Counted from the first letter of the stretch, positions 27,544-62,362 are shown. The stretch is DNA of 64,000 nt from a virus (IMGVR_UViG_3300026519_000012:751-64750); one strand, 5' to 3'. Numbers and translations are program-made. The notes: generated by a model not told the origin, from the letters alone.

Positions 27544-27585
27544 ATGCCCGCCTCTTATTTATAACAAAAAACTAACAGGGCGCTA

Positions 27586-27614: not shown

Positions 27615-27629
27615 GTATTATTTTACTGT

Positions 27630-28544
27630 TTATGCTAGGCGTAAAAACACTGGTTGCCTAGGCTTACATTTTACCCCACAACCCATGCTTTTATAAGTGA
27701 TACGCTTGTGGTATATTTGCGCCTTATTTTCCCAAAAGGATGATTTTTCTTTATCTGTAAGCCCACTGCTGATATTAAAAACAATCCCACTTTTTAGGTC
27801 TCTAACAATTAGCGACCCCAGTGTGTTTGTAGGAATAATATTAGAGCTACGCCTGCTTCGTGTAGTTAGCCCTCGATTATCAATAACGGCTTCATTGTTA
27901 TTTGTGGTGCCTTCTATAAACCCGACAATAATAGCTTCCGAATATGTGTGTTCTTTATATTTCACGGCTAGTTGTTCTTTGTCCGTACTACGCCCATATT
28001 TATATAAACCTTTTGGATCTTTTAGCACTAAGCCTTCATAGCCGCTTTGTGTCCACACTTGTATCCATTGCTCTATATCCGCAAGCGAGTTGATAGGTTG
28101 TTGGTGTGTGAAAGAATGAAAAGTCGATGGGGGTTGCGTCAATAACTTATAGTAGCGATCTATAAATTGCATAGTCGGTTGATTCCAATAATCAAATACT
28201 TTATAATGTATACCGGTGATAGCTTTGTTTTTAGACATTAAGCAAGAAACTGTCCGGTTAAATACATCAGGTGCCCATGGATTGCCTATATATAACTCAC
28301 CGTCAAAACCTTCTAAAGCTGGTGAACATAATCGTTGCAAGCGTTCATTGGGCAGGGGTTTCATAGATTTGCTACGAAATATGCCATTTTTGACGATTGC
28401 CCGAATGCCGTCAATTTTCGGGCTGGCTAATTTTGGTAGCGCTATAGTGGCTTCATTATAATTGCTGTAGCTCATAGGTCTGATTTTTTGGTTTTTGAAG
28501 AATGTTGACATTTTTAATAACTCCCTTTTATACCTTGTGTGCAA
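27630..28544 (-). CDS. lig: ATP-dependent DNA ligase
   Basis: PKIDGIR, FDGEL, VFD, GYEGLVLK, KYK, PRQPVF. Confidence 0.93.
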   Translation of the reverse strand: MHTRYKRELLKMSTFFKNQKIRPMSYSNYNEATIALPKLASPKIDGIRAIVKNGIFRSKSMKPLPNERLQRLCSPALEGFDGELYIGNPWAPDVFNRTVSCLMSKNKAITGIHYKVFDYWNQPTMQFIDRYYKLLTQPPSTFHSFTHQQPINSLADIEQWIQVWTQSGYEGLVLKDPKGLYKYGRSTDKEQLAVKYKEHTYSEAIIVGFIEGTTNNNEAVIDNRGLTTRSRRSSNIIPTNTLGSLIVRDLKSGIVFNISSGLTDKEKSSFWENKAQIYHKRITYKSMGCGVKCKPRQPVFLRLA

Positions 28545-38676: not shown

Positions 38677-39352
38677 ATTACTTGAAAAGCTGGAAGAAGA
38701 GTCTACAGGCGGGGAGCCCGCGCCTACGGGTGCGGAGGAAGTAAAACCTAACACCGAAACTAACGTTGACCCTTATGCTACAATGTGGCAACCGCCGAAA
38801 GAGGAAGAGCCAAAGGAACAAGCAGCAGTTCAGGTTGTACAACAAGCGCCGCAGACGTATAATATCGATGCGCATATTGAAAGTTTAGGGCTTGCGCCAC
38901 CAGTAAATACGGAATTATTCCAGTCCGCCTTGCAAGGTGACGCGGAAGCTATGCAGAATGTTCTACAGGCAAACAGTAACCAAATATATAAACAAATGCT
39001 TGGTGATGTCAACAAGTTGATTACCGCTAAGATTGCCGCAGCCGTAGATAGCGCGGGCGCTGCAACAGGGGCGCAAATTAACGACAAGCTGGCCATGAAC
39101 GCTTTAGCCTCTGAAGTTCCGGCCTCACGAAATCCGGCTATCCAACCAATGGTGGAAGCAGCATTTAAACAATTTTTGCAAACTAAGTCAGTAAGCGAGG
39201 CAATTGCAGAAACTAAGAAATATTTAGCTTACGTTGGCACCACAATAGGGGACTCACAGACCGCCAATGTGGGTCAGCAAGGTGAATTGAACGACGGCTC
39301 TGTCACATCAGGGGCTAAAGAAGAAGACTGGCTCGAATTGTTAAAAGGGTGA
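38669..39352 (+). CDS. Putative scaffolding protein (phage B)
   Basis: Acidic, Ala/Gln-rich helical protein preceding the capsid gene. Confidence 0.6.
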   Translation: MFKLLEKLEEESTGGEPAPTGAEEVKPNTETNVDPYATMWQPPKEEEPKEQAAVQVVQQAPQTYNIDAHIESLGLAPPVNTELFQSALQGDAEAMQNVLQANSNQIYKQMLGDVNKLITAKIAAAVDSAGAATGAQINDKLAMNALASEVPASRNPAIQPMVEAAFKQFLQTKSVSEAIAETKKYLAYVGTTIGDSQTANVGQQGELNDGSVTSGAKEEDWLELLKG

Positions 39353-39380
39353 CAATGGGCACAACTAGGAGATTTAACTA

Positions 39381-40547
39381 ATGGCTGTAAAAGGTGTATT
39401 TACTTCCGATGCGAATGTGAATTCTTCACGTAAAGGTGATTTTGCTAGTGGTGTGTTGTATGGCGCGCCTGCTGGTTCTGCGCCACTGCTTGCTTTATCG
39501 GCGGGGATGAAATCAGCAGATGCAATGGATACCGCAACTCACTGGTTCGAGCAGAATCATATCTCTGGCAGGGAAGAGATTATCAATAATGCAGGTGTTG
39601 GGGACACTATTGTAGTACGCGATGCGTCTGCTATCATTCCGGGTATTTTATACTGGGTGGAAACTACAGGAGAATATATATTCGTTCTTGCGGTTTCAGG
39701 AACGACATTAACGGTACAGCGTGCTTTCGGGGAAACTGTGGCGGCGAACATTGATGGTACAGGGACTGCTGTTGATATGCAGCGTATATCTTCTGCACAT
39801 GAAGAGGGATCAAGTAAACCAGTTGCTTTAGCTTATATCGCAGAACCTAAATGGCAGTACCAGCAAATTTTTCGTAACACTTGGGATGTCACCAATACTA
39901 CCGCCGCCGTTTCTTATCACACTGGCGATGTTGTAGCTTCTAATCGTGCGGATGCGGCAAATCTCCATGCAGAAGATCAAGAGCGCGCCTTTTGGTGGTC
40001 ACGTATGGCTGTCGGTTCACAGAACGGTAAACCTTTCCGCACAATGGCTGGAATTGACAGTCGGATCGTTACTAATGTTCGTGCGCAAGGGGCAAATACG
40101 CAAGCGCAGCACTTGAATTCGTGGATGAAGGATATTCACCGTACGAATATTAAAGGGCAAGCTGATGAGCGTATTTACTTTGCTGGCAATACCGCTTTGG
40201 AAGTGATTAATAAACTTGCTGCTATTAATGGGACAACACAGCTACAGCCGGGCACTACTGAATACGGACTAAAAGTTATGAAGTGGCTCACACCTTTTGG
40301 GGATATGTCAATCATGACAGCGCCATTAATGAGTGAATCGCCTGTATGGACGAAGAGTTTATATGCTTTGCATCCAGCTGCTTTGCGCACACGTTATCTG
40401 CGACGTACTACTCATGAAGATAACGCGCAAGATAATGGCGTCGACGCCACTTCTGGTGTATTTACTACAGAATGTTCTATAGAGCTATTGAAAGAAAGTG
40501 TTTGTGGAAAATTCACTGGCATTGATACAGCCGCTGCTGATAGTTAA
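39381..40547 (+). CDS. Major capsid protein (DUF5309/SU10-like)
   Basis: HWFE, QIFRN, ERAFWW, RTMAGI, EYGLKV..WLTPFG motifs; strong AGGAG RBS. Confidence 0.8.
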   Translation: MAVKGVFTSDANVNSSRKGDFASGVLYGAPAGSAPLLALSAGMKSADAMDTATHWFEQNHISGREEIINNAGVGDTIVVRDASAIIPGILYWVETTGEYIFVLAVSGTTLTVQRAFGETVAANIDGTGTAVDMQRISSAHEEGSSKPVALAYIAEPKWQYQQIFRNTWDVTNTTAAVSYHTGDVVASNRADAANLHAEDQERAFWWSRMAVGSQNGKPFRTMAGIDSRIVTNVRAQGANTQAQHLNSWMKDIHRTNIKGQADERIYFAGNTALEVINKLAAINGTTQLQPGTTEYGLKVMKWLTPFGDMSIMTAPLMSESPVWTKSLYALHPAALRTRYLRRTTHEDNAQDNGVDATSGVFTTECSIELLKESVCGKFTGIDTAAADS

Positions 40548-44835: not shown

Positions 44836-46226
44836 CTAAACGCGTACAAATACTTCGTTATACGGACGCCGCAACCTCTGCATTTGTTGGGCGCGTGGGC
44901 GAATTGTCAGTAAATTTGACTAACAAAAGCCTAGTTGTTCATGACGGCATAAACGCCGGAGGGCAAGAACAAGCAAGGGTTGATTTTGTTAATGTCGATG
45001 GTGTGCCAGCGTTGACGCAATTAAGTGCTGGTGTGGGTTCGATTGCAGGATTAACTGTGGGTGCTAATCGGCTTCTATATACTGAATCTTCTGATTCCTA
45101 CACATCAACGAGCTTGACCTTGCTAGGACGTAATCTTTTAGCAGGAAATAATACAGCCGCTATGCGTGCAACGTTGGAAACTCCTGGGCTGGCTGTCTCG
45201 AATACGTTTCTTAATCAGCATAATGAATTTCGTGGTCGTATTGAAATGAACAATCACGGTGTTACTCCTGCAAGTTTTGTTCATCATGATGACAACGCGG
45301 ATGTTGATAAAAAGCGTTGGGGCATTACAACTTCAGGAACGGCGAACGGAGACTTACATTTTCAAGCGCGCTCGGATGATGATATTACCCGTGTTGATTA
45401 TATGGTATGTACTAGAGGTACGGGTGTGTCTGTATTTAGGGTTAATTTGCTTGCGGGGGAAGTACAGGCAAATGGTAGCAATATTGTTACAGAGGCTAGA
45501 AATAATAATTTTGCAGGGCAGCAAAGAATTACTAACACTGCGCCTACCTTGTTTTTACATGAGACAGGCGTAGCGGCAGATAGTGGGAAATATTATTTTC
45601 AGGTGGATAGCACTAACCTGACTTTGTTTTTGATGAATGACGCAGAAAATGCATCAACTCCAGTAATGCAGTTTGCTAGAACGGGTATAAATAGTGATGC
45701 AATTGATTTTACTGCGGATAATTTTCGGATTAATGGTGAGTCGGTTGCTACACAATCACCTGCCGTGCCCGGCTATGTCAAAGGCAAAGCGGTTTATGTA
45801 TCAGCTACAGGGGACAACGGGTTAGGTATAAACATTGCTTCTAGCGCCGTTATGGATGCATGGGAGTCTTACGGCCCGACAGGTTCCGGCGCGAGTAACA
45901 TCATGGCGGATCTAGACGTACTCCCGGCAGGAGCTACTTGGGTAGAGTTATCTATACGATTGCTTATCCGCCGGATTTCAGCTCCCGATACATTAGTGGC
46001 TGTTTACGCACGGCCTACAGGTAGTACGGCTAATGGGATACTCACTTCAGTGGTTCTTCATGAAGCGCAGACGGATGCTGGTGAGATAAATGTGTATTTT
46101 CTACATCGGTCTATAAAGGTTGCGCTCGATGCGCAAAACCGTTTTGAACTTAAGTGGGATATCCCTGCATCTGGAACGGTACTATCCCAAGGTATTATAG
46201 CCATAGTCACAGGCTTCGGTGCCTAA
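44832..46226 (+). CDS. Tail fibre (phage B), Mtd-like N-terminal anchor
   Basis: VQILR...FVGRVGEL...LVVHDG..AGG N-terminal motif; C-terminus shared with 12038..13513. Confidence 0.8.
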   Translation: MTKRVQILRYTDAATSAFVGRVGELSVNLTNKSLVVHDGINAGGQEQARVDFVNVDGVPALTQLSAGVGSIAGLTVGANRLLYTESSDSYTSTSLTLLGRNLLAGNNTAAMRATLETPGLAVSNTFLNQHNEFRGRIEMNNHGVTPASFVHHDDNADVDKKRWGITTSGTANGDLHFQARSDDDITRVDYMVCTRGTGVSVFRVNLLAGEVQANGSNIVTEARNNNFAGQQRITNTAPTLFLHETGVAADSGKYYFQVDSTNLTLFLMNDAENASTPVMQFARTGINSDAIDFTADNFRINGESVATQSPAVPGYVKGKAVYVSATGDNGLGINIASSAVMDAWESYGPTGSGASNIMADLDVLPAGATWVELSIRLLIRRISAPDTLVAVYARPTGSTANGILTSVVLHEAQTDAGEINVYFLHRSIKVALDAQNRFELKWDIPASGTVLSQGIIAIVTGFGA

Positions 46227-46229
46227 ATA

Positions 46230-46424
46230 ATGAACCAAGATAAAATAGAAATAGCAAAAAACGTAGGCGACGCGGTAGTAATACCGACTGGCGTTGTGGT
46301 GTCAATAAGCTATTGGATCACTGATATTATCAATCCATTGATAACAGCGCTGATAGGCTTAATGACTATAATTTGGCTTTTTTATAGGATCAAAGAGAGT
46401 AAGCGCATCACGAAGGCACCTTAA
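46230..46424 (+). CDS. Putative holin (copy 2)
   Basis: Identical to 13517..13711. Confidence 0.55.
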   Translation: MNQDKIEIAKNVGDAVVIPTGVVVSISYWITDIINPLITALIGLMTIIWLFYRIKESKRITKAP

Positions 46425-46481
46425 TGAGCGACCTTATTATTACATCGCTATCATATAAACCCGTTACAAGGTAGGAATGAA

Positions 46482-46946
46482 ATGTTGATCGATAAATTTT
46501 TCATAATAGGGCTGCCAAGGAGTAGAACCTACTGGCTAAGTCAGTTTTTTGGCTGTCTCCACGAAGGCGTTTATCACTACCCAGATTACAGGGATTTTCT
46601 TAAGTCTGACCATACTGGTGATAGCACTACTTGTTATTTGCAGATAAAGGATCTAATCAAGGATGAGAGAAAAGTAATCATACATAGGGATATTAAAGAT
46701 GTTGGAGATTCTCTTGTTGAGCTGTTTGGGAAGTTTGATTGTAGCTTTCTGAAGGATATTGAAAAAGAATTACTAGAAGAAGATGGGCTTCATGTCCAAT
46801 TTGATGACATTAGCTCACGGTTAGAGGAGATATGGGATTACTGTAGAAGCGATGAATTCCCAAAAGAAAAAGCACTAAAAATGGACGACGTGATAATGGA
46901 AAACCATTTTTTAATTGGAGAGGTAAAGAAGCTTGTCATCTTATAA
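46482..46946 (+). CDS. Sulfotransferase-like protein (copy 2)
   Basis: Identical to 13769..14233. Confidence 0.6.
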   Translation: MLIDKFFIIGLPRSRTYWLSQFFGCLHEGVYHYPDYRDFLKSDHTGDSTTCYLQIKDLIKDERKVIIHRDIKDVGDSLVELFGKFDCSFLKDIEKELLEEDGLHVQFDDISSRLEEIWDYCRSDEFPKEKALKMDDVIMENHFLIGEVKKLVIL

Positions 46947-47502
46947 GAAGCTTGATTTAAGGCTTAATGTCCAGCCGCTCAAGGAAGCCTTGGAGCGCAG
47001 GAGCGACTTATTCGGCAAGTATGATTACCGGGCGACTTCTGAAGGATCGCCACACTCGGAAATGAAAGATATCTGGGTGAGATATAAAGACGTTGCGCCA
47101 CATATAAAATCGGGAGATTTCTCTAGCTTCGCTAACGAACATGACTCTATCTGGTATCAGGTATACCGGGATCTACCGGAGACAAAAGAGATTATATTTT
47201 CTGTAATGAACGCAGTAAATGGCGAACGACTTGGCGGCGTGTTAATCACAAAATTACCCCCCGGCGGTAAGATAAAGAAACATGTTGACGGTGGGTGGCA
47301 CGCTGAGTATTACGATAAATATTACGTGCCTGTTAAAAACGAAGACGGCGCTATATTTTCGTTTGAAGACGGGGTCATCGCCCCGGCGGAGGGTGACGTG
47401 TACTGGTTTGATAATTCTAAACCTCACTGGGTAGAAAACAACTCTGATTCGGAGAGAATTGCTATGGTTATTTGTATAAGAACTGATGGAGTAGAAAGCT
47501 AA
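46933..47502 (+). CDS. Asp/Asn beta-hydroxylase-like oxygenase (copy 2)
   Basis: Identical to 14220..14789. Confidence 0.8.
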   Translation: MSSYKKLDLRLNVQPLKEALERRSDLFGKYDYRATSEGSPHSEMKDIWVRYKDVAPHIKSGDFSSFANEHDSIWYQVYRDLPETKEIIFSVMNAVNGERLGGVLITKLPPGGKIKKHVDGGWHAEYYDKYYVPVKNEDGAIFSFEDGVIAPAEGDVYWFDNSKPHWVENNSDSERIAMVICIRTDGVES

Positions 47503-48938
47503 TGCCTTGGGGAGCAGCAGCGGTTATAGGTGGCGCGCTAGTATCCGGCTACGCATCAAATCGCGCGGCAGGAAAAGCGGCAGACGCATCACAATACGCC
47601 ACTGACAGCGCTAACAGGCTATCTGAGCGGCAGTTCGATATGGTACGTGGCGACACGGCACAAGCAAGGGCTGCAGGTGGTGAGGCGGGTGCCGAGCTAT
47701 CACGATCGCTAGGCCTTAGGACGCCGATCCCTGAAGCTTTTAACAGGCAAGCGGCAATCAGAGAGGAGATCAGGAGGTTACGCGATCGAACGGGGGACGA
47801 ATGGCGAAACTATGGCTTCACTGGGCAGTACGCTATTGAAGATGAGCGCTCTAGGCAGATCAGAGAGCTTGAGAATGAAAGTGATAATTTAACGCTTTAT
47901 GACGAAGCCCAGCCATTAGAAGGCGAAGTCCTGCCACAGTTTGGCGTTGAATTTAACTATAGCGGCGAAGGGCCTCAGTTTGAATACGGCGGCTCTCAGC
48001 CGGAATTTAATGATGCTAGTCGATTAAGCCAGTTTCAGAATCAGGGTGAGAATCTGCAAAGTTTTGAAACGGATCAAGAGGTTTCGCAGTTCGGCCAAGG
48101 TGACCGGTTCGAGTATGACCTCGAAGGCGATGCTGGCTATCAGTTTGCTCGTGATGAGGCAATCAAGGCCACCGGACGAGTCTCTGCAGCACAAGGCAAG
48201 CGCGGCAGTGGTAACCGGCTGGCAGAGGTCGCAGACCGCGTGACGGGCGTTGCATCGCAGTATGCTGACCAAGCTTTTAACCGACAGGTTAGAGCTTCCG
48301 CTGAGAACTACGGCCGAGACGTAAATGAATTCGGCCTTCAGCGCGCGGGTGATACTGAAGCGTACGGGCGAGAGCGTGGCGAATTCGCCATTGATTATGG
48401 CCGAAACATTGATCAGTACGAGCGCGATATCGGGGCTTTCAACGTAAACACTGGAGTGGCAGATCGCAACTATGGCCGAGAGCTAACGAGGTACGAAATC
48501 GCTCGAGGAAGAGAGGGTGAAGGCTATAATCGGGCAAATCGCCTCTATGAAGTCCGAACGGCTGAGGATAACCGAGAATATCAACGCGCGGGCGATGAAT
48601 ATAATCGTGGTTTCACAAGGTTTGGTGTTGAGACTGATCAGAATCGGGAGCTATACGGCCGTCGCCAAGATCGATTAAATCGACTTGCAAGTATGGCGGG
48701 AGCTGGGCAAACGGCAGTCAGTCAAAGTGCAAGCGCAGGTAGCAACTATGTCAATGCTGCCAGCAACAATCTGATGGCAAATGCTCAGAATCAGGGGAAT
48801 GCCGCGATGGTTAAATATCAAGGCCTAAACAATGCAGCACAAGCTGGGATCTCTAACATGTTAAGTTACAACCAGCAGCAGCAAAATAACCAGATGATGC
48901 AACAGTGGCTGAACCAGCAGCCGGGGGCGCTAAGATGA
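47502..48938 (+). CDS. DNA ejection protein gp7-like (copy 2)
   Basis: Identical to 14789..16225. Confidence 0.7.
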   Translation: MPWGAAAVIGGALVSGYASNRAAGKAADASQYATDSANRLSERQFDMVRGDTAQARAAGGEAGAELSRSLGLRTPIPEAFNRQAAIREEIRRLRDRTGDEWRNYGFTGQYAIEDERSRQIRELENESDNLTLYDEAQPLEGEVLPQFGVEFNYSGEGPQFEYGGSQPEFNDASRLSQFQNQGENLQSFETDQEVSQFGQGDRFEYDLEGDAGYQFARDEAIKATGRVSAAQGKRGSGNRLAEVADRVTGVASQYADQAFNRQVRASAENYGRDVNEFGLQRAGDTEAYGRERGEFAIDYGRNIDQYERDIGAFNVNTGVADRNYGRELTRYEIARGREGEGYNRANRLYEVRTAEDNREYQRAGDEYNRGFTRFGVETDQNRELYGRRQDRLNRLASMAGAGQTAVSQSASAGSNYVNAASNNLMANAQNQGNAAMVKYQGLNNAAQAGISNMLSYNQQQQNNQMMQQWLNQQPGALR

Positions 48939-50095
48939 GCGGCTTTAAGGTATTTGATTACAATCAGGCCATCGGTGGTGCAAACCAGAGCAGCCGAAAT
49001 AGACTTTCGATGATGCAGGGTATGCAGTCGATGACTGATCGCAGGGAAGATCGGCAATATAATCGGCAGAGTCAAAACCGACTATCTGAAATCAGGGACA
49101 ATCAGGAGAACCGCGCGCAGGCTCAATTCGACCAGAAACAGCAGATTGAGAATACAAAGTTTTTCTACCAAGGAATGACCGAAGTCGCCAGAGATCCATC
49201 GCGTGCCCAGTATTGGGCGGATGAACTTAAGAAGCGTGGTATCGCTGATTTTGACATCTCAAAAGGGACCCCAGAGCAATTACAGCAAGGGGCGGCTAAG
49301 CAGGCAGATGCACTTCGTAAATCATTGGAGGCCATTGGTGAGATTGCGCCTGAGCCACGGGAGAAATACGGGCAACCTGTTGCGGGCGTGGGGCCGAGTG
49401 GTAATCCCGAATTTCAGCGCTTTGGTGACCGAGGTAGCGCCCAGATTGTCAATGATTTCGTGCCGAGCAAGAAAGTCCCGCTGGTGAGCATAAATAAGGG
49501 CGAAGACAAGTACGCGACGGAGAGAATGAAGTTGCAGGCTCAGGGTATTAATGACTTAGGGAAAAATGCTAGCGCGGCGTACAAGTCATCCATGGCGATG
49601 GATCGGTTTACCAAGGCATCCGAAAAAGGAACAGAAGGCGGTGCCCAGCCAGTTATAACGGCGGTAAAGAACCTTTTAACCTCTTTTGGGTATGATGACA
49701 AACAGTTGGCGGAAGTAAGAATCATGGAGCAGGCGATCAATGACGTGCTTGCAAATAAGATGGCAACATTGGGTGCCCGCGGGCTGACTGACAGTGATAT
49801 GAATATACTCAAGGCGTCGCTACCTAGAGTTGCTACTGATCGCAATTCGAGGCTCGAAGTAGCTCGAATATTGAAAATCCTCAACGATTTTGAAATTGAT
49901 GAGTATATTGCCGAACTTGATGAAGAGAAGAGAATTAACCCTGAGCTAGCTAAGCGGATAATGGAACCGAGGTGGCTTAGGTTTTATAAAGCAGAAAAGG
50001 CCAAGGAGGCGAAGGGCAAGGATGGAGCGCCGCCGCCCTCAACCGATCAGCCCCCCCCCTCAATTGATGACCTGGTGAATAAATATGCCAACTAG
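48935..50095 (+). CDS. DNA ejection protein (copy 2)
   Basis: Identical to 16222..17382. Confidence 0.6.
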   Translation: MSGFKVFDYNQAIGGANQSSRNRLSMMQGMQSMTDRREDRQYNRQSQNRLSEIRDNQENRAQAQFDQKQQIENTKFFYQGMTEVARDPSRAQYWADELKKRGIADFDISKGTPEQLQQGAAKQADALRKSLEAIGEIAPEPREKYGQPVAGVGPSGNPEFQRFGDRGSAQIVNDFVPSKKVPLVSINKGEDKYATERMKLQAQGINDLGKNASAAYKSSMAMDRFTKASEKGTEGGAQPVITAVKNLLTSFGYDDKQLAEVRIMEQAINDVLANKMATLGARGLTDSDMNILKASLPRVATDRNSRLEVARILKILNDFEIDEYIAELDEEKRINPELAKRIMEPRWLRFYKAEKAKEAKGKDGAPPPSTDQPPPSIDDLVNKYAN

Positions 50096-51899
50096 AGAGC
50101 AGCTCGAATCAGCGCTAATAAATGCTGATAAGGCTGGAGACATTAACGCTGCAAAGCAACTTGCAATGGCAATCAAGCAAGGAGGTGAGATAGTCCAGCC
50201 ACCTCAAGAGGTGCCACCCAAAGACCCAGCTGAAGTGTACTCAGGATTCATACAGGGACTTAGAGATCCGGTTGACGGGCTTGCTCAGCTTTTATACGAG
50301 GCATTGCCAGAAGGGGTTAGAGAGTCAGGGGACGCTTTAAATAATTGGCTTTCTGAGAAAACAGGTTTTATTGAAAAAATCCCTGAAGGTGGGTTTACTC
50401 AATTGCTAAAAGACAAAGAAGCGAGGTACCAAGCCGGTCGAGTTAAAGAAGGAGACGAGGGCGCTGATCTGGACAGAATTGGAGGAAACTTCGTTTCAAT
50501 GGCGGTTCCGGGCGCACAAGTTCGCGCAGTCAGCGCGCTGGGAAAAGTCGCTCAGGGAGCGGCTTTGGGCGCAGGATATGGCGCGGCGTTGCCAACCTAT
50601 GGTGATGAGTTCTGGGTAGAAAAAGGCATGCAGGCCGCGATTGGTTCTGCTGCCGGAGGCGCCCTATCGGCCAGCGGTGTTGCCGCTGGAAAAGCCATCG
50701 ATGCAGGGAAGCGCATTTTACGACCTATGACTTCTGGCGGAAGAAAGGCTGATGTCACTGACACTTACCAGACTTTAGCCGGGAGTGAAAAAGATAAAAT
50801 TATTAGCGCGCTAAAATCAGCAAAAAAAGGGCAAACATCAGCGCAGGCAATCGCCAACGCTAACCGGGGAAGTAACGATGTATTTGGTGCGTCTATTGTC
50901 CGCCTAGAGAAGGACTTATCAAAAAAATCCCCGATTACCGACAAAATGCGAAGTGTTTACAAAAAACAATCAATGGATCGAAAAAGGTCTCTTGATAAGA
51001 TCGCAAAAACAGATGGTGACCTTGCCGAAGCAATAAAACAAAGAGATAGCAAGGCCGCTCCTTACTATGATGCGGCTCGGAAGTCCAGCAATAGCATCAA
51101 TGTCGAAACGCTAAGAAATAGCATCGATGGAGTTATAAGAGACAATATAAACGATACTGCGATCACTATTCCCCTTAAAAATATCCAGAGAAAGCTAAAG
51201 GATGCAACGCCAAGAGGGCTTATTTCAACGTCAAGCCATATCAAGCGCCTAATGAACAAAACAATAGACGGGAAAAATGTCTATGACAAAAAAGTGCTGA
51301 CTGAGATCAAGGAAGCGCTGGATAAGAGTATTGAGAAAAGCGTTGCTGATTACGACATTGCTAGAGAGATTATCAGGAGAGAATCTGTCCCCATAAATCG
51401 AATGAAAGTCGGCCAAGAGCTTAAAAAATCGCTTATTGATGCCACCGAGCAAGAGAAGGCACGGCCGTTTGTGAACGCACTAAGGGAGGCGCCTAGAACA
51501 GTTAAGCGCGCCACCGGGTTTACGGGCAATAACACGCTTGAAAACATTTCGAGCAGGGCCGAAATGGAGACATTTTATAAAATAAGGGATGAGCTGCTAA
51601 CTGACGAGAGCATGAGTAGACTTGCAAAAGGCGTCGACGGTGTTTTATCTGACATTTCTACGCAGTCAAAACCTCAACTGCCAAACGCTCTTGTCAGAGA
51701 GATTATGATAGCCAATCATCTGTTGAAAAGACTGGCGCACAAAGATTATGGAGCCGATTACCAGCGAATGATGCTTGACCTGCAAAAAAACCCAAAGTTG
51801 CTTGCAAAAGTGCTTCAGACAGAAAAGGACAGGAAGGTTCAGTCAGCAGTAATCAGATTGGTTGGTGAAGGCGCCGTTGTTTCAGCAGTGCCGCAATGA
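50085..51899 (+). CDS. DNA ejection protein (copy 2)
   Basis: Identical to 17372..19186. Confidence 0.65.
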   Translation: MPTREQLESALINADKAGDINAAKQLAMAIKQGGEIVQPPQEVPPKDPAEVYSGFIQGLRDPVDGLAQLLYEALPEGVRESGDALNNWLSEKTGFIEKIPEGGFTQLLKDKEARYQAGRVKEGDEGADLDRIGGNFVSMAVPGAQVRAVSALGKVAQGAALGAGYGAALPTYGDEFWVEKGMQAAIGSAAGGALSASGVAAGKAIDAGKRILRPMTSGGRKADVTDTYQTLAGSEKDKIISALKSAKKGQTSAQAIANANRGSNDVFGASIVRLEKDLSKKSPITDKMRSVYKKQSMDRKRSLDKIAKTDGDLAEAIKQRDSKAAPYYDAARKSSNSINVETLRNSIDGVIRDNINDTAITIPLKNIQRKLKDATPRGLISTSSHIKRLMNKTIDGKNVYDKKVLTEIKEALDKSIEKSVADYDIAREIIRRESVPINRMKVGQELKKSLIDATEQEKARPFVNALREAPRTVKRATGFTGNNTLENISSRAEMETFYKIRDELLTDESMSRLAKGVDGVLSDISTQSKPQLPNALVREIMIANHLLKRLAHKDYGADYQRMMLDLQKNPKLLAKVLQTEKDRKVQSAVIRLVGEGAVVSAVPQ

Positions 51900-52077
51900 T
51901 CCGCCAAGCATTACTTTAAAAGTAACAGTTAGCTTTTTATTTTGTTTAATATTGCCGACTCAATCGTATTTATAGCCGATCCACCCTTAATCATATCAGA
52001 CGTAACGTTGTAATGGCGTTAAAATGTTTGCCGCTCTAATTGTCTAAGCGCGGTATAAAACTGTTCTTCTATCTCGG

Positions 52078-52758
52078 TCATAATCTTTGATCCTCAAACC
52101 ACTGCTGCATACCAGTATCATAATTGCTAATGCTGGTGTGGTAATTAATATAATCGCGTCCTAATAAACCATTAACCCAATTTTTAATTTTAGTCCAGCG
52201 TGATCTGCGATTGATAACGTATGTAATATCAGGGTTGTAATATCCGGGAGGCAGGTGCTCAATCGGGTCGCCGTCATTGATAAAATGTACATTACGCTCC
52301 GGGTAATCAGCAGGTTGATAGCTGTCAACAAATGCCCCCGGTGATGCAAACGTACAGCACTGTGATTTAACACCAATATCAAACAGATCCGTATGTAAAT
52401 ACTGAGCTAACGCACCGCCGCGTGAGAATCCAGTGATGTAAATATTTTGTACCTGCTCATTATAATTCATGAGCCAGTTTTCAATGCGCTCGAACATTAC
52501 GTCATAGCCGCGAGTAAACCCATGCATACGGCCATCAGATGTTGCGTGAGCGTCGATATTGCGCAACCAGTCCAGATCATCATTGCTGCCTCTAAATGCG
52601 ATTACAACGCCTATGGCGCAATCCACGACTAGCACTGATTCGCCTAAGCCGTCAGCCTCGTTAAATTCAGTAACAAATTTTATGCCCCGAACCGGTGATT
52701 TAAACCCTTTCGCTAATTTCATAACTTGCCAGATTTGCTCGATTTCGTTATTTGTCAT
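52078..52758 (-). CDS. Lipase class 3 family protein (copy 2)
   Basis: Three N-terminal substitutions versus 19365..20045. Confidence 0.85.
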   Translation of the reverse strand: MTNNEIEQIWQVMKLAKGFKSPVRGIKFVTEFNEADGLGESVLVVDCAIGVVIAFRGSNDDLDWLRNIDAHATSDGRMHGFTRGYDVMFERIENWLMNYNEQVQNIYITGFSRGGALAQYLHTDLFDIGVKSQCCTFASPGAFVDSYQPADYPERNVHFINDGDPIEHLPPGYYNPDITYVINRRSRWTKIKNWVNGLLGRDYINYHTSISNYDTGMQQWFEDQRL

Positions 52759-52788
52759 TTATACAGTCCTCTCTGCTGATAAACCGGC

Positions 52789-52848
52789 GCAGCAATCTGC
52801 GCTAATGTGCGTGTTATACGCCATATATCCATGTACTTACTGTTATAT
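52789..52848 (+). other. attI-like recombination site (phage A copy)
   Basis: Non-hairpin site ending in G|TTATAT (G at 52842) at the head of the array; conserved with 20081-20138. Confidence 0.6.
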
Positions 52849-52854
52849 TCCTAA

Positions 52855-53856
52855 TCACGCTATCTGCTTAATTTTAAGCTCGCTGCCGCCTAGAATCGCA
52901 TTGCCGCAAGTAATCAAGCCATCCTCCTCGTCTTGTGAGGGAATAAACACAAGAGTATCGAATCCCGCAGCCGTGCAGCTATCTTCTGGCTTTTTGTAGG
53001 GTCGGTACGTTTGATACCCGTCTACCGTTTGAATACCGTTCTCGCGGCAAGCAGAATTATTATGGATCGGAGTTATCTTCACCATCCATTTATCAACGTC
53101 AAAAAGATTGGCAAGCTTTTCACCGTCCACTTCGTTACCGGAGGCGTAAGCTATATTTAAGCAATATTTGCGCCCTATAGGGCTCTGTAGGCTTTCTAGC
53201 TGATCCGCAATATACCCAAGCGTATAACTGCTTCCGCCAAACATTGCGGTTCTTTGTTTCTCTGAGCTAGTGTTGACGCTAATCTGTAATCCAGCCTGAC
53301 CTTTGAATAGATCATTCTTTATGGATGCCCATTCGTGGATTCTCTCGAACGTGTGTTTGTATTCTGGGCACATCGTGGTAAGAACTGGGTGGATAACTTC
53401 AATCCTTACTCCTGTTTCATCTTGGATTTGGCGTTTATTATTTGCCAGCCACTCGGAAAACTTAAACACATCGATATTAAAAATAGGCTCGCCCATTCTT
53501 GCAAAGTGAATGTTCAGGCGGTCTGTGTATTTTACGTTTTCGTAGGCCTTTAGTCCCGTATAAAACTGAGACTTTAAATCGTCAAAACTAACGTTACCTG
53601 AAAACTTAATGTTTGGTACGTCGCAAAAGGTGCATTTCATTATGCAACCATATTGAGTAGATAGGGTGATAACCCACTTCTCTTGCAGCGGCATAATCTC
53701 GCCATTCTCAACACCGTTAAGCTCGCGGGTGTAACCTAAAAAGTCGGCTTTTATGTTTTTGCGTTTCCCGTAATCACCAATGGAAAGGGTTTCTAATTTT
53801 CCTTTGGCGTAGTCATCAACAATCAAATACCCCGTGGGTAAGAAAATTTTATTCAT
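52855..53856 (-). CDS. Radical SAM protein, RlmN/Cfr-like (cassette 1)
   Basis: STQYGCIMKCTFC (CxxxCxxC), RMGEP, LQISVN and C-terminal TCG. Confidence 0.8.
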   Translation of the reverse strand: MNKIFLPTGYLIVDDYAKGKLETLSIGDYGKRKNIKADFLGYTRELNGVENGEIMPLQEKWVITLSTQYGCIMKCTFCDVPNIKFSGNVSFDDLKSQFYTGLKAYENVKYTDRLNIHFARMGEPIFNIDVFKFSEWLANNKRQIQDETGVRIEVIHPVLTTMCPEYKHTFERIHEWASIKNDLFKGQAGLQISVNTSSEKQRTAMFGGSSYTLGYIADQLESLQSPIGRKYCLNIAYASGNEVDGEKLANLFDVDKWMVKITPIHNNSACRENGIQTVDGYQTYRPYKKPEDSCTAAGFDTLVFIPSQDEEDGLITCGNAILGGSELKIKQIA

Positions 53857-53883
53857 GGTAGATTAGCCTTCCTCACAAATGGA

Positions 53884-53989
53884 ATATAACAAGGCAAATC
53901 CACTCCGACAAAATAAAGCGGTGCTTGCCCTGCGTTCTTTTTTAGCTCCTCACGCCGCTTTATTTCGCGGGTGATTTGCGACGTTATGT
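53884..53989 (+). other. attC site 1
   Basis: ATATAAC-aagGCAAATCCAC...GGTGATTTGC-gac-GTTATGT. Confidence 0.85.
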
Positions 53990-53990
53990 G

Positions 53991-54332
53991 TCAAATAAAC
54001 AATACACTCAACAGCGTCTCAAAATCGCCGCCGCACAAAATCTTCTTTTTACCTATATACGGCCCAGAAACTTCGTAATCGTCGATTGATATTCGTTTTA
54101 TTTTATAGTCGCCAATACAGATATTTACCGATGGCTCAATGTCACAATTAAATCGCCATATTTTTTGAGTTTCGTCAAAAGAAATATCAATATTATCGGC
54201 AACAAAGCCACGGTCAAATAACGCGCTGTAAACCTCTATTGGCTCAATCTCGGCATCTTTAGTGCCCTCAGCGTCCATCAAGTGTTTTTGGTCTCTTACC
54301 TCTAATTCTAGTTTTGCGAGTAATCCACACAT
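53991..54332 (-). CDS. Hypothetical protein (cassette 2)
   Basis: ATG lies inside the R'' of attC2. Confidence 0.6.
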   Translation of the reverse strand: MCGLLAKLELEVRDQKHLMDAEGTKDAEIEPIEVYSALFDRGFVADNIDISFDETQKIWRFNCDIEPSVNICIGDYKIKRISIDDYEVSGPYIGKKKILCGGDFETLLSVLFI

Positions 54333-54428
54333 AACAATTAGCTCCAGCGGACACAGTACCGCGCCGCGTTTTTAGTTAAATTTAAGCTCCTGTGCGGCGG
54401 TACTGCGCCGCTGAGCATGGCGTTAGAT
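54329..54428 (+). other. attC site 2
   Basis: ACATAAC-aatta-GCTCCAGCGGAC...CCGCTGAGC-atggc-GTTAGAT, with an extra C in L''. Confidence 0.9.
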
Positions 54429-54767
54429 AGCTCTATCATTGTATTCATCAACTGCATCAAGCGGACTCCTTAGCTCCATCTCCTCAACATCACAAACAAT
54501 GAGCTTATAAACCAGTTCATCAGGAGCAAAAACCAGTCTTTTTGTTATCCCTGTTTTAGGGTTTTTGCAGAATGCAATTTCAATTTGCCTCTCCATCACA
54601 GATGTTATTCGATCCATGTCTATTGACTCTACCCCTAATACCATTCCTTCTGGATTGAGCGGGTCATTAGAAATAGTCAGCCCACCGTCATCATTAACAT
54701 TTTCAGTATCCATGCCGCCTTCAGCAATACTGGCGGTTAATGCATTAGCTAAGCTTTTATCAATCAT
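54423..54767 (-). CDS. Hypothetical protein (cassette 3)
   Basis: GGAG RBS; the stop TAA is the TTA of the crossover. Confidence 0.6.
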   Translation of the reverse strand: MIDKSLANALTASIAEGGMDTENVNDDGGLTISNDPLNPEGMVLGVESIDMDRITSVMERQIEIAFCKNPKTGITKRLVFAPDELVYKLIVCDVEEMELRSPLDAVDEYNDRAI

Positions 54768-54793
54768 AAGGCAACTCCGTAATTAAGTTCGCA

Positions 54794-54880
54794 ATCTAAC
54801 AAGTAATTCCAGTGGACGCTGGTAGTCCAGCGCTTCGCGCATGCCGCATTCCGCGCGCCACTGAATAAAAGTCGTTAGCT
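54794..54880 (+). other. attC site 3
   Basis: ATCTAAC...ATTCCAGTGGAC...CCACTGAAT...GTTAGCT. Confidence 0.88.
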
Positions 54881-55141
54881 GTCAAACGAAATAGCACTGA
54901 TTGTCTTAATCTGCCGATCAAGCGATTTCAACTTCCTAATTCTAATCTCGTCAGCCCTAAGCACTGCGTCCTCTCTACATTTGTGCCAATCCCGCCCCTC
55001 ACCGTGCAAATAAACCGCACAAGAACATTTATTTTTAGGTATAACAATCAGAGAGTTGTTAGCATCCATAGGGTCAATCTCGTGCTCAATAATGCCCTCT
55101 GTTAAACAATATTTCGTGCTCCAAATTTTCATCTTAGTCAC
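54875..55141 (-). CDS. Conserved phage hypothetical protein (cassette 4)
   Basis: WSTKYCLTEGI...GEGRDWH...KSLDRQI. Confidence 0.65.
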   Translation of the reverse strand: MTKMKIWSTKYCLTEGIIEHEIDPMDANNSLIVIPKNKCSCAVYLHGEGRDWHKCREDAVLRADEIRIRKLKSLDRQIKTISAISFDS

Positions 55142-55151
55142 TCCGTCGCAC

Positions 55152-55249
55152 AGCTAACAATCAAAATTCACGCGGACAAAATGCCGCGACGTTTTTACTA
55201 AATTTAAATCTCATCATTGGCATTTAGCCGGTGATTTTGGGCGTTATGC
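55152..55249 (+). other. attC site 4
   Basis: AGCTAAC...CAAAATTCACGCGGAC...CCGGTGATTTTG-ggc-GTTATGC. Confidence 0.88.
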
Positions 55250-55250
55250 C

Positions 55251-55544
55251 TTAAATTGAATTAAGTATTTTAATGCCGTTATAAAACGGAGATTCTGATT
55301 TTTCAAATTGCTCTTTCGCATTAAGCATTTTCTCTCGCCATTGCTCGCGTGTTTGCAATGCCAGCAAAATTTGGTCACGACTTAATTCGTCGAATTCTTC
55401 CCGCAGTTGTTCCATGTTCATTTCTGATATTGATACTTTTCTATACTCAACGCAACTATCCTTTGAGTGCTGTGGATAAATAGGGCATGTTTTATTTGCT
55501 TTTGAGCAGAAAAAACATTCTTTGCTTAGTTTAGGCTCAGGCAT
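55251..55544 (-). CDS. Hypothetical Cys-containing protein (cassette 5)
   Basis: True start probably MPEPK, with the ATG inside the R'' of attC5. Confidence 0.55.
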   Translation of the reverse strand: MPEPKLSKECFFCSKANKTCPIYPQHSKDSCVEYRKVSISEMNMEQLREEFDELSRDQILLALQTREQWREKMLNAKEQFEKSESPFYNGIKILNSI

Positions 55545-55640
55545 AACAATTAGCTCCAGCGGACGCAATACCGCGCCGCGTTTTGTAGTAAATTTAAAGT
55601 TCTCAGTGGTGGTACTGCGCCGCTGATCATGGCGTTAGGT
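55541..55640 (+). other. attC site 5
   Basis: Close relative of attC2; GCATAAC...GTTAGGT. Confidence 0.88.
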
Positions 55641-55853
55641 GGCTTGTGGTTGCTCTACGGCTGATAGTATAAAGCTGGCTCTACAAATCACTTCCTCGCC
55701 AACTCCCTTTACGTTGTAATCACGTATGGCCGTTGTTTTCCCACCGCAAACAATCCCGGTTATCCATGTGTCGCACTGTTCCGTTACCCGCATCATAAAA
55801 GTTCCTTTTCGTTGCGCTGTGATTAAATATGTTTTTCCTGTTTCAATGTTCAT
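55635..55853 (-). CDS. Hypothetical protein (cassette 6)
   Basis: GGAGG RBS; stop lies in the crossover. Confidence 0.6.
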   Translation of the reverse strand: MNIETGKTYLITAQRKGTFMMRVTEQCDTWITGIVCGGKTTAIRDYNVKGVGEEVICRASFILSAVEQPQAT

Positions 55854-55881
55854 TTTCTAATCCTCCAGTGTAATTCCCGCA

Positions 55882-56000
55882 ATCTAACAAAACAAATCTA
55901 CGCGGACAATGTGCAGCGGTGTTTGTTTGCGTTGGCAGTTAAGTTAAAGTTCGTCTCAGTGCGCTTGCATTCCACAAATAAGTCAATTTAATCGTTAGGC
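55882..56000 (+). other. attC site 6 (right arm degenerate)
   Basis: ATCTAAC..CAAATCTACGCGGAC is intact; the L' arm is poorly complementary; ends GTTAGGC. Confidence 0.65.
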
Positions 56001-56285
56001 ACACAGTTCGCATTCACCATCACAGCAGCGCTCTTCATGATTCAGCAGTCCGCGCATAATATTCTCCTCGGCATTTTTTAAAAGCTCTTTTAACTCAGAT
56101 GCGTTTTTACATTTCCCGCATTCCTTATCGATAATAGCGCTTATAACTTGGGCAATAGTTGCGTGATAGGTTATTTTTTTCTTCCGTTTTACATTTCCGT
56201 TTCTGTCTTTCCCGTCCCGCCATTGGTATAACTGCCACCCCGATGTATCTCGTTTAAAGCTATAATTTTCGTTTAATTTGATCAT
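55995..56285 (-). CDS. Hypothetical protein (cassette 7)
   Basis: AAGGAAG RBS; stop lies in the crossover. Confidence 0.6.
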   Translation of the reverse strand: MIKLNENYSFKRDTSGWQLYQWRDGKDRNGNVKRKKKITYHATIAQVISAIIDKECGKCKNASELKELLKNAEENIMRGLLNHEERCCDGECELCA

Positions 56286-56358
56286 TTTGTCTTCCTTAAA
56301 AAAAAATGGTGGGCCAAGGCGGGCGCATTAACCAGTTATGCTATTGGCCCTAAAAAGC

Positions 56359-56469
56359 GCCTAACAATTGCATCCACCCGGACAGTCCTACGCGGTGCTC
56401 ATTTGTGCCAAAAAAGCCTGGCACAAGCCTCCACGGCTTCGGCCTGCGCGGTTATGCGCGACGTTATGT
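56359..56469 (+). other. attC site 7
   Basis: GCCTAAC..GCATCCACCCGGAC...CGGTTATGC-gcgac-GTTATGT. Confidence 0.82.
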
Positions 56470-56470
56470 A

Positions 56471-56680
56471 TTAAATATCTTTTAGCCATGATGTGTGATA
56501 AACAACTTGACTACCATTCTTAAACTCTAGCGTTACGTCACCATTAGAATCAACTCCGCGAGCAATAGCTTTCCGGTTTGAATAGCTGTCTTTATACATT
56601 ATTTGGTATTTTTTGCCCGGCTGAATATCATTGCGCGAGAGGCAATTATCAGTGTTTAGCATTACTCGCTCCTTTGCCAC
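56471..56680 (-). CDS. Small hypothetical protein (cassette 8, gene b)
   Basis: Stop immediately after R'. Confidence 0.5.
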   Translation of the reverse strand: MAKERVMLNTDNCLSRNDIQPGKKYQIMYKDSYSNRKAIARGVDSNGDVTLEFKNGSQVVYHTSWLKDI

Positions 56681-56844
56681 TCACGACTAATTGAATTCTT
56701 ATGCCAGCCCTCTTGTTCAAGCTTCGCTTCTGCCATGTCTACCAGCAGCGCAATATCGCACTCATCTCTAACAGAGCCGCAGTCTTTCATGACGTTCACC
56801 TTGTCACAGATAGCGGCGATTAGCTCTAAATTGTCCATAATCAA
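56662..56844 (-). CDS. Small hypothetical protein (cassette 8, gene a)
   Basis: GGAG RBS before MDNLE. Confidence 0.5.
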   Translation of the reverse strand: MIMDNLELIAAICDKVNVMKDCGSVRDECDIALLVDMAEAKLEQEGWHKNSISREWQRSE

Positions 56845-56858
56845 TCTCCAATTGAGTC

Positions 56859-56946
56859 ACATAACAAGTGCTTACACGCGGACAGTCTTCCGCGTCGTTC
56901 GCTCCGCTCTCTATGCCCCAGCCTGCCGGTGAAGCTGTCGTTAGCT
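56859..56946 (+). other. attC site 8
   Basis: ACATAAC..GCTTACACGCGGAC...CCGGTGAAGC-tgtc-GTTAGCT. Confidence 0.85.
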
Positions 56947-57004
56947 GCAAACGCAGGCACTTCAGCGCCGTAACATCCTCGCTACACATTCCGCTCCTTT
57001 ATTG

Positions 57005-57502
57005 TTAAAACGGGATATCATCATCAAAGTCGTCAAAGTTCTGTGATCCGCCTTGCGACGGTGCAGCACTCTGACGTTTGTTGTCGGCACTGCTCGGCGC
57101 ACCCCCGCCTTGATTTTGATGCTGGTTTTGGTCGCCCCCATATTCACCGCCGCTTGAGCCATCACGGCTATCCAGCATCTGCATATTGTTAGCGACGATT
57201 TCAGTCGTGTAGCGATCTTGACCGCTGGTTTTATCCTGCCATTTACGTGTACGCAGGCTACCTTCCACATATACCTTAGAACCTTTCTTCAAGTATTCAC
57301 CGGCGACCTCACCTAAACGATTAAAGAAGACGACGTTATGCCATTCGGTACGCTCTTGCTTCTCGCCGGTCTGTTTATCTTTCCATGACTCGCTCGTGGC
57401 AATCGTCACATTAGTGACCGCTGAACCACTCGGTACATAGCGCACATCAGGATCTTTACCTAGATTACCAATCAGGATTACCTTGTTAATACCTTTTGCC
57501 AT
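57005..57502 (-). CDS. ssb: Single-stranded DNA-binding protein
   Basis: [15 protein letters not shown]...ERTEWH...DFDDDIPF; gammaproteobacterial type. Confidence 0.97.
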
Positions 57503-60883: not shown

Positions 60884-60997
60884 ATATTAGCTCAGCTCAT
60901 TGCTTAAGTCAATAGCTTAGCTAATATTTATTTAAAGCAAACCCCCTGTAGTTTATTAGCTCAGCTATTGACATCGAGTACCTGTCGAGTTAATAAT
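60884..60997. promoter_or_regulatory. Divergent PL/PR promoters with three operators
   Basis: PL (-) TTGACT-17-TAATAT at 60912-60884; PR (+) TTGACA at 60968 with a TAATAAT -10 region; operator-like TATTAGCTNAGCT at 60885, 60911 (inverted) and 60954. Confidence 0.75.
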
Positions 60998-61619: not shown

Positions 61620-62362
61620 AAATAAAAAACTGGAAAAAGTTTCAGCATTTTAAAGATCGTCGCCCCCCGTGGATAAAACTTCACCGCGAAATACTGGAAC
61701 AACGTGATATCAGTTTGATATCAGACTGTTCCTTCCGTGTTTTGATTGGTATTTGGCTGCTGGCTTCAGAAGATGAGGGGCTTGTTGGCGAATTACCATG
61801 TATTGATGATATATCATTTAGGCTTAGAATAGAAAAAACAAAGCTAATCAGCTCGTTAGAAGAACTTGAGCCTTTTTTAATACACGATGATATCGACTTG
61901 ATATCACTCCGACATCAAAGTGATAGCCTAGAGACAGAGACAGAGACAAAGACAGAGGCAAAGGCAGAGGCAAAGCGCGCGAGAGATATCACCCCCCCAA
62001 AAAAAATAACTGAAAGGCTAAATTACGACTTATGGCCATCGTTACCAGATGACGATTGCTTGGATGCTTGGTTAGTGGCGAAGAAAAAAGCAAACGGGTC
62101 TGTTAGCCAGAGGGCAATAAATACCGTGGGCAAAGAATTGCACAAAGTGGTTGATGCTGGAGTTTCAGTAGAAGACGCCCTCGATATCGCCGAAAACTCA
62201 AAATGGAGAGGTTTTAAATCCGAATGGGTATTAAACGCAAAAGGAAACCAAAATGAAAACAGCTTACGAAATAGCCAGTCAGGCGCGGCAAACCTTGCGG
62301 CAGGGTGCCGAGATGCCTTTGAGCCAACAATCACGGGCGAATCAGAGTGGGCCGATCTCTAG
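61616..62362 (+). CDS. Replication initiator (lambda O-analogue)
   Basis: IKNWKKFQHFKDRRPPWIKLHR N-terminus, ETETET linker and W.GFK.EW C-terminal domain. Confidence 0.8.
   Translation: MKIKNWKKFQHFKDRRPPWIKLHREILEQRDISLISDCSFRVLIGIWLLASEDEGLVGELPCIDDISFRLRIEKTKLISSLEELEPFLIHDDIDLISLRHQSDSLETETETKTEAKAEAKRARDITPPKKITERLNYDLWPSLPDDDCLDAWLVAKKKANGSVSQRAINTVGKELHKVVDAGVSVEDALDIAENSKWRGFKSEWVLNAKGNQNENSLRNSQSGAANLAAGCRDAFEPTITGESEWADL

Follow-up and report, generated by a model that had tools for sequence, protein, structure and literature searches.

A probable integrase-less integron cassette array, in reversed orientation, in the early operon of a hydrothermal vent phage

Among the means by which bacteria gather and rearrange genes, integrons are the best known. 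Their first phage examples date from 2023 and were regarded as rare carriers of cassettes from bacteria: among 10,705 phage genomes there were three complete integrons, one In0 and 17 clusters of attC sites lacking an integrase (CALINs), and IntI1 recombined five of the six phage attC sites tested (Qi et al. 2023, PMC9892861). Here we describe positions 52843-56946 of a 64,000-nucleotide stretch of viral DNA (IMGVR_UViG_3300026519_000012:751-64750, hereafter the window), which is a 64,750-base virus record from a hydrothermal vent sample minus its first 750 bases. Eight attC-like palindromes alternate there with short open reading frames (ORFs) in a leftward early operon. The locus is probably an integrase-less integron cassette array (CALIN), reversed in orientation and loaded at an attI-like site by an integron integrase (IntI) from elsewhere. 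The original prediction, made by a model from the sequence alone, had regarded integrons as rare or absent in phages and rated the novelty of the array highly; that novelty was overrated, as Qi et al. already report phage CALINs.

The published phage CALINs, among them that of Pseudoalteromonas phage H101, resemble this locus in that small genes bounded by attC sites lie in a phage genome without an integrase, and in H101 they are also reversed. The window differs from them in its eight sites and nine genes, in an attI-like site common to three genomes, and in cassette-for-cassette differences between those genomes. The sedentary chromosomal integrons of marine Gammaproteobacteria (Vibrio anguillarum, Shewanella, Arsukibacterium, Saccharophagus and the genome here called G044) belong to the same attC family by covariance model, but they lie beside intI and have their genes on the attC top strand in 44/51 cases, whereas the window has no intI and 0/8 such cassettes. 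An integrase supplied in trans can also place cassettes at G|TT outside integrons (attG sites, consensus GWT; SALINs), and read-through from a resident promoter then leads to their expression (Loot and co-workers, bioRxiv 10.1101/2022.09.11.507474). The locus described here differs from scattered attG insertions in having a phage as target and a site that has been reused, with three first cassettes, and is in this respect attI-like. Lambdoid early operons have a non-essential accessory ('moron') region at their far end, with variable small genes downstream of the recombination genes; unlike those in the window, these accessory gene units have no flanking site-specific recombination sites.

Rfam returned nothing at gathering scores, only five chance-level rows up to E 10, none of an attC or integron family, and home-built covariance models were used because Rfam had no matching family. 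Model R1 was built solely from the eight window sites on the plus strand. Model R2 was built solely from 26 bacterial-type sites found by R1 in two published, integron-bearing records (L001 and L002), Vibrio phage Va_90-11-286_p16 (intIA 27091-28053) and Shewanella prophage M16-3 (intI 38888-39847 plus a separate CALIN). The eight sites, with their scores and with a fold z that compares the minus strand, as single-stranded DNA, with shuffles, are as follows.

53884-53989, plus strand: E1, attC-type site; R1 84.7 bits, R2 52.7 bits; fold z -3.2
54329-54428, plus strand: E2, attC-type site; R2 69 bits; fold z -2.9
54794-54880, plus strand: E3, attC-type site; R2 30.1 bits; fold z -3.5
55152-55249, plus strand: E4, attC-type site; R2 50.6 bits; fold z -2.6
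55541-55640, plus strand: E5, attC-type site; R2 56.8 bits; fold z -1.05 (weak)
55882-56000, plus strand: E6; R1 61.1 bits (own training site), R2 13.5 bits (E 1.2); fold z +1.37
56359-56469, plus strand: E7, attC-type site; R2 25.3 bits; fold z -0.43
56859-56946, plus strand: E8, attC-type site; R2 31 bits; fold z +0.06

On the two published records R1 gave 26 matches at E<=0.14, all within cassette arrays and on the cassette-gene strand, and six remaining rows at E>=2. In the reverse direction R2 recovered seven of the eight window sites at E<=0.0023 (25-69 bits), all on the plus strand, missing E6, and nowhere else across the 64 kb did it give E<1.2. Inside the window the next-best row of R1 (18 bits) was the reverse strand of one of its training sites. 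R1 finds arrays in L001, L002, L006, L007 and G044. The arrays of Arsukibacterium indicum have 12 R1 sites and those of Saccharophagus sp. K07 seven, and both genomes encode an IntI that exceeds the TIGR02249 cut-off. Tetrasphaera phage TJE1 and Polaribacter phage P12002L had no R2 match and MW202573 had two weak rows (E 0.06 and 0.17), while a scan of IMG/VR with the attC-arm pattern returned two chance matches inside genes, where R1 sees no attC. These comparisons support assignment of the eight elements to the integron attC family, with the plus strand as top strand. With these home-built models recognition held in both directions, except for E6 with R2, and the predicted palindromes of 87-119 nt alternating with ORFs are all present.

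The anatomy of the sites agrees with this assignment in most respects. Each has a length within the 57-141 bp of attC sites and spans RYYYAAC to GTTRRRY on the plus strand, with TAAC...GTTA(G/T) termini in 8/8, and the L''/L' boxes pair, leaving two or three bulged bases on one arm only, unpaired central spacers of 5 nt (e.g. AATTA / ATGGC) and a variable terminal loop. By the definition of Nivina et al. 2016 (PMC5027507), the bottom strand of an attC carries its bulges across from the AAC arm; the first bulge is in most cases G, and the last is a conserved T. In the folds of E1-E4 the bulged bases are seen clearly on the 5' arm of the plus strand, which is the 3' arm of the minus strand, and the extra L'' base that had been predicted is real and clear. 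All eight sites have GG-A-C on the top strand, giving a conserved bottom-strand T as the last bulge; the first bulge on the bottom strand is G in E1, E2, E3, E5 and E7, A in E4 and E6, and T in E8. The stem from first to last bulge is 5 bp in E2, E3 and E5, compared with the 6 bp quoted for IntI1, and the G044 sites have the same spacing. E5 is 88% identical to E2, and the E7 loop resembles attC loops of Shewanella, Arsukibacterium and Saccharophagus and that of one cassette on a related contig (x1, below). Folding of the bottom strands, also put forward as a check, held for E1-E4, whose minus strands fold better than shuffles (z -2.6 to -3.5), and failed for E5-E8. E6 is probably decayed. The opposite assignment, with the minus strand as attC top strand, was ruled out by model strand, bulge side and array ends.

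The first crossover G lies at 52842 (cttactG|TTATATTCC), so that cassette 1 starts at 52843. From there the array consists of a lone G|TT followed by n cassettes with n attC sites, ending at the G of the last attC, and these ends are compatible only with plus-strand attC polarity. Each cassette comprises the gene or genes and the site listed.

52843-53983: cassette 1, c1 (52855-53856, minus strand), radical SAM enzyme of 333 amino acids, and E1; own pairing 10 nt
53984-54422: cassette 2, c2 (53991-54332, minus strand), 113 amino acids, and E2
54423-54874: cassette 3, c3 (54423-54767, minus strand), 114 amino acids, and E3
54875-55243: cassette 4, c4 (54875-55132, minus strand), 85 amino acids, phrog_22725 (E 4e-16), and E4
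55244-55634: cassette 5, c5 (55251-55544, minus strand), 97 amino acids, and E5
55635-55994: cassette 6, c6 (55635-55853, minus strand), 72 amino acids, and E6; own pairing 5 nt plus one mismatch
55995-56463: cassette 7, c7 (55995-56285, minus strand), 96 amino acids, and E7
56464-56940: cassette 8, c8a (56471-56662, 63 amino acids) and c8b (56662-56838, 58 amino acids), both minus strand, and E8

The start of each cassette is a perfect complement of its own R'' over 10, 9, 7, 9, 9, 5, 7 and 7 nt (cassettes 1 to 8), as the original prediction had noticed for the cassette-start GTT. The mean is 7.9 nt, compared with 4.4 nt for R'/R'' pairing between neighbours in the array and 4.6 nt for all non-own pairs, and the observed sum of 63 was reached in 14 of 200,000 permutations. 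On the sequence, this own-box pairing is the trace that circular cassettes recombined at G|TT would leave. Together with the two-way model recognition and the array ends, it bears out the reading of the units as integron-type cassettes. Insertion of ORF-less attC elements between pre-existing genes was considered and rejected, as it would put R' and R'' side by side on one flank of an attC, whereas in this array each gene lies between its paired boxes.

Coding scores of 0.06-0.36 bits per codon were obtained for all nine minus-strand ORFs, each being the best of its six frames, whereas plus-strand ORFs of at least 40 amino acids score at most 0.013. GGAG-type ribosome sites precede most cassette ORFs, some of them within an attC arm; in E2 the c2 ATG sits in the R'' box and GGAG in L''. 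Four stop codons in the array, that of c3 among them, are formed by the reverse complement of TTA at G|TTA. The c1 protein (phrog_24834, E 2e-107) belongs to a large, mostly metagenomic family with 5159 homologues at E<=1e-20, and in NCBIfam and PDB it matches only the radical SAM core, RlmN/Cfr-like. A single protein match was found for c2 (83 amino acids at 96% identity), and c2 and c3 have no relatives in IMG/VR. The stop and start codons of c8a and c8b overlap by one base, a layout typical of coupled pairs such as toxin-antitoxin modules; both have GGAG-type ribosome sites and positive coding scores, and no family match was found for either. PADLOC assigned nothing to c1-c8.

Evidence of exchange comes from comparison of related genomes. 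In the record there are two phage-like halves, and a 7.35-kb block of tail-fibre genes and a lipase gene is common to both (copies at 12788-20138 and 45501-52846, 99.4% identical). Each half has an array at the same attI-like site.

52785-52842, plus strand: attI-like insertion site, ending ...CTTACTG with the crossover after G 52842; not a hairpin
20134-20921, plus strand: decayed array of the other half, the second at this attI-like site; G|TT is followed by a different first sequence and, further on, by 180 bases of cassette 2

The attI-like site contains no attC by R1 or R2. It aligns with 20073-20137 of the other half and with 1402-1466 of a 2,714-base metagenome contig (L026), which was pulled out with the attI-like pattern; a scan of IMG/VR with this pattern gave no match. 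The three are common up to CTGTTA and then diverge. Between the halves the common backbone stops at ...CTTACTGTTA(T), followed by c1 in one and by unrelated sequence in the other. The first 180 bases of cassette 2 recur at 20742-20921, from the crossover on, starting at ACG|TTATGTG, and neither model detected an attC in this second array.

Contig L026 reads, from left to right, lipase N-terminus (96.7% identical), holin gene, GH108 endolysin gene, attI-like site, two cassettes not present in the window (x1 and x2) and part of c4. The attC sites of x1 and x2 score 35.8 and 40.9 bits, with own-box pairing of 11 and 9 nt. The c4 segment 54873-54990 is 100% identical to L026 2597-2714 over 118 bases, from CG|TTAGCTG to the contig end, and follows a different attC there; the window and L026 backbones are 95-97% identical and the cassettes before c4 differ. 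An identical c4 on a backbone at this level of divergence points to recent exchange. Three arrays are thus found at one docking site, namely c1-c8, a remnant with part of c2, and x1-x2-c4. Each has a different first cassette at a conserved non-hairpin site, a behaviour resembling that of an attI, and every break falls at G|TT. Because three arrays share one attI-like site and homology breaks at G|TT, the sequences support the view that the locus is shufflable, and the comparison with related phages came out as the original prediction had anticipated.

Two features of L026 are noted separately. The holin (GTA_holin_3TM) and GH108 endolysin genes (L026 295-1277) lie between lipase and attI-like site, and neither is found there in the window. 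Cassette x2 (L026 1975-2604) carries divergent ORFs, for a 33-amino-acid hydrophobic peptide on the minus strand with a GGAGG ribosome site and a 131-amino-acid protein with an N-terminal membrane helix on the plus strand, and may be a self-expressed two-gene module; PADLOC gave the 131-amino-acid ORF only weak rows (E >= 1.7e-4).

Contigs from sequencing runs fit cassette-level variation weakly, without proving it, and are not counted among the main evidence. At each end of the array, contigs of run X1 span the junction with the backbone without a mismatch (52769-53979 and 55931-57038), but X1 may be the source sample and these joins are then not independent evidence. Contigs of the unrelated run X2 include relatives of several cassettes at 85-95% identity, one of which matches only from 54422, a crossover G, onward. 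Among the matches listed there are joints at cassette edges (53986>54332, 53990>54328, 56468>53886, 52822>53885 and 54893>56445), which may come from repeats or other organisms, and loose ends at 53974 and 54424 (X1) and at 53877 and 53886 (X2).

The identification of the plus strand as attC top strand in the original prediction is correct, and all cassette genes are therefore antisense to attC. In the canonical layout genes lie on the attC top strand; in six bacterial arrays this was so for the longer ORF in 44 of 51 informative gaps between attC sites, the other seven being antisense (two more gaps lacked an ORF, and a single long gap was left out), whereas no window cassette has this layout (Fisher p 2.9e-6). 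Read in this way, each attC precedes its gene, and the predicted coding strand is the recombining (bottom) strand. The other phage arrays are not uniform. In L026 polarity is mixed, the main x2 ORF lying on the top strand as in bacteria. The published CALIN of phage H101 (NC_029094, L037, 75919-77987) has four attC sites by R2, on the plus strand (34-43.8 bits); gp133-gp135, the annotated genes lying between these sites, are all three minus-strand genes and thus of reversed polarity. This reversal is not remarked on in the Methods and Results of Qi et al. 2023. In the literature covered here we did not find reversed polarity, an attI-like site shared between phages, or natural cassette-for-cassette differences between phages described.

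No integrase gene accompanies the array. The integron integrase model TIGR02249 and the Phage_integrase model PF00589 had no match in the whole 64,750-base record, in agreement with the predicted lack of a tyrosine recombinase; eight attC sites within 3.1 kb and no intI correspond to a CALIN, the adjacent intI of a complete integron being absent. Because the phage does not encode the enzyme, it would have to come from outside. In the order to which Arsukibacterium belongs, 48 of 151 genomes had an R1 match, with G044 at the top (up to 65.6 bits). Its attC sites have the form TAACAA(T/A)TAGCTCCAGCGGACA ... TGCCGCTGAGCAAGGCGTTAG, which are both arms of E2 and E5; they are spread over several arrays whose genes lie on the top strand, and two full IntI genes in this genome exceed the TIGR02249 cut-off. 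Because of this match in the arms and these two IntI genes, a host with a G044-type chromosomal integron appears to be the likeliest source of the integrase, in line with the host integrase acting in trans that the original prediction had inferred. The integron complement of G044 (3.5 Mb; loci L018-L024) is itself unusually scattered, with attC arrays on at least five contigs and several IntI fragments adjoining arrays.

Expression of the cassettes also appears to depend on the phage. The locus lacks the arrangement in which a Pc promoter reads from the attI side, and all genes point toward the attI-like site. Leftward promoter-like sites near 60884-60912, beyond the other end of the array, are the sole candidates for driving transcription and are consensus matches only; promoter-like sites are not enriched (23 found, 18.8 ± 4.3 expected). 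Terminator-like sites are not enriched either (14 found, 11.1 ± 3.9 expected), and no T-run follows the hairpins. We infer that the array is still active and that an early promoter drives it.

These observations can be combined in a provisional scheme. The array sits at the far end of a leftward early operon in the order RecT, RecE, SSB, array, lipase. The mobile unit would be a circularisable cassette [TTRRRY..., gene, R''-L''-loop-L'-G]. An IntI-type tyrosine recombinase, cutting the bottom strand of attC in its folded form, would insert such units successively at the fixed attI-like site (…CTTACTG|TT). The enzyme, not encoded by the phage, would be provided by the chromosomal integron of the host, which is likeliest, or by a co-resident element. 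The genes would be read from the phage early promoter toward the insertion site and not away from it, and with insertion at the far end of the operon a new cassette would have no polar effect on upstream genes.

The reversal may have a mechanical side. Richard et al. 2024 report that attC sites fold, and cassettes are excised, more readily when the attC bottom strand is the lagging-strand template. TGATATC-type iteron-like repeats are found at 61705-61917 inside the O-like replication gene of the phage, and they probably mark a replication origin. If a fork runs leftward from this gene, the minus strand, carrying the attC bottom strands, would be the lagging-strand template; it would also be the non-template strand in transcription, and both placements would favour folding. 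This is a guess. With reversed cassettes, the genes could in this way follow the direction of the operon without making the recombining strand less prone to fold.

Several points weigh against a mobile, integrase-loaded array. The training sites of R2 all lie in arrays that Qi et al. 2023 call integron or CALIN, but they were chosen via R1, and the two model tests are not fully independent. The minus strands of E5-E8, half of the sites, fold no better than shuffles and E6 fails R2, and because of this the distal half of the array may be frozen. Recombination was not observed, and the contig joints have sides of only 20-43 letters. Between the attI-like site and the putative G044 attI cores the likeness extends over just 7-9 bases, too short to count, and was set aside as evidence. 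G044 has no related prophage, only its SSB gene matching (68%). A c1 homologue with 76% identity, in the IMG/VR viral contig L005, has no attC nearby, so c1 also lives outside cassettes and the idea that it always travels as one was dropped.

Some of these points would suit a fossil array, built by a past integron integrase and now a fixed part of the operon without further exchange: the poor folds of E5-E8 and the failure of E6 with R2, the lack of a detectable attC in the copy of the other half, and the lack of an integrase in the record. Against it, the 118 bases of c4 are identical to L026 despite different preceding cassettes and a backbone at 95-97%, and the sites nearest the insertion site, E1-E4, fold well; we regard a fossil as unlikely. 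An integrase brought by related phages or other mobile elements with an integron integrase of their own, in place of one from the host chromosome, is about equally unlikely, as the E2 and E5 arms match a bacterial chromosomal integron and no IntI is found in the contig.

A piece of a bacterial chromosomal integron could have been captured passively, by illegitimate recombination or imprecise prophage excision, and the attC types do match bacterial integrons; such events have been described for Vibrio anguillarum phages (Qi et al. 2023, PMC9892861). A captured piece would hardly explain an array that opens at a lone G|TT and closes at the G of the final attC, one site with three different first cassettes, genes that all follow the phage operon antisense to attC where bacterial arrays have 7/51, or c1 and c4 belonging to phage protein families, and passive capture is accordingly very improbable. 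More improbable still is that the hairpins are phage intergenic regulatory elements, such as terminators or RNA structures, that merely look like attC. In favour of this, the hairpins fold and lie between genes, and in several the next gene has its ribosome site and start codon, but R1 and R2 recognise real attC sites and the window sites crosswise and strand-specifically, the arms are those of bacterial integron attC sites, terminator-like sites show no enrichment, the hairpins are not followed by a T-run, and homology between genomes breaks at G|TT. A reversed CALIN loaded at an attI-like site by an IntI from elsewhere therefore remains the reading we prefer.

Rightward of the second block copy the minus-strand order is lipase, nine small-to-medium ORFs, SSB, RecE-like and RecT-like genes; past these lie a divergent control region and then plus-strand replication O/P-like and RusA-like genes. 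The RecE-like and RecT-like genes are further upstream than SSB, and the genes immediately bordering the array are as follows.

57005-57502, minus strand: SSB gene (phrog_44, E 5e-59), the backbone neighbour on the upstream side of the array, within the leftward early operon
52078-52758, minus strand: lipase/esterase gene (Lipase_3, E 9e-10), the backbone neighbour on the downstream side of the array, belonging to the 7.35-kb block

A 61-amino-acid ORF (56804-56989) with a good ribosome site begins right after the SSB gene and crosses E8; it is probably not a gene, its coding score being about zero (0.005 bits per codon). Within the divergent control region (60885-60966) the 13-nt exact repeat TATTAGCTCAGCT occurs twice, 69 nt apart, and looks operator-like. 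Megablast of 52000-57500 against 50,697 phage records gave no match, tblastn with RecE and c1 found only distant relatives (<60% identity), and the lipase has no IMG/VR relative and among 5.8 billion proteins matches only itself.

IMG/VR gives the record topology as linear, and its completeness is estimated at 100% (CheckV). Apart from the shared block the two halves are unlike, one having DNA polymerase, ligase and helicase and the other RecET, SSB and O/P-like genes, and the record is either a cointegrate or an assembly run through the shared 7.35-kb module. About seven tandem 39-bp repeats (93-97% identical) occur at 12443-12745, in a tail-fibre-like gene before the shared block.

The locus adds evidence of natural whole-cassette exchange at one docking site in three related phage genomes. 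It links phage sites to a bacterial chromosomal attC type, which is a hint at the host, and it shows a consistent polarity reversal that is also found in one published phage array, that of H101. Tentatively, and with somewhat less than even confidence, we propose a phage version of the integron: an attI-like docking site at the end of an operon together with a separate pool of back-to-front cassettes, readable only from a phage promoter and exchanged between unrelated phages of the same host by means of a borrowed IntI, the reversal placing the folding strand on both the lagging-strand template and the non-template strand, speeding shuffling during a short infection and being the phage rule. 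If this is true, the reversal in H101 would be an instance of that rule and not an oddity. If the reversal is general, phages would hold a cassette pool of their own, which would be a place to seek small anti-defence genes and would bear on how cassettes arise.

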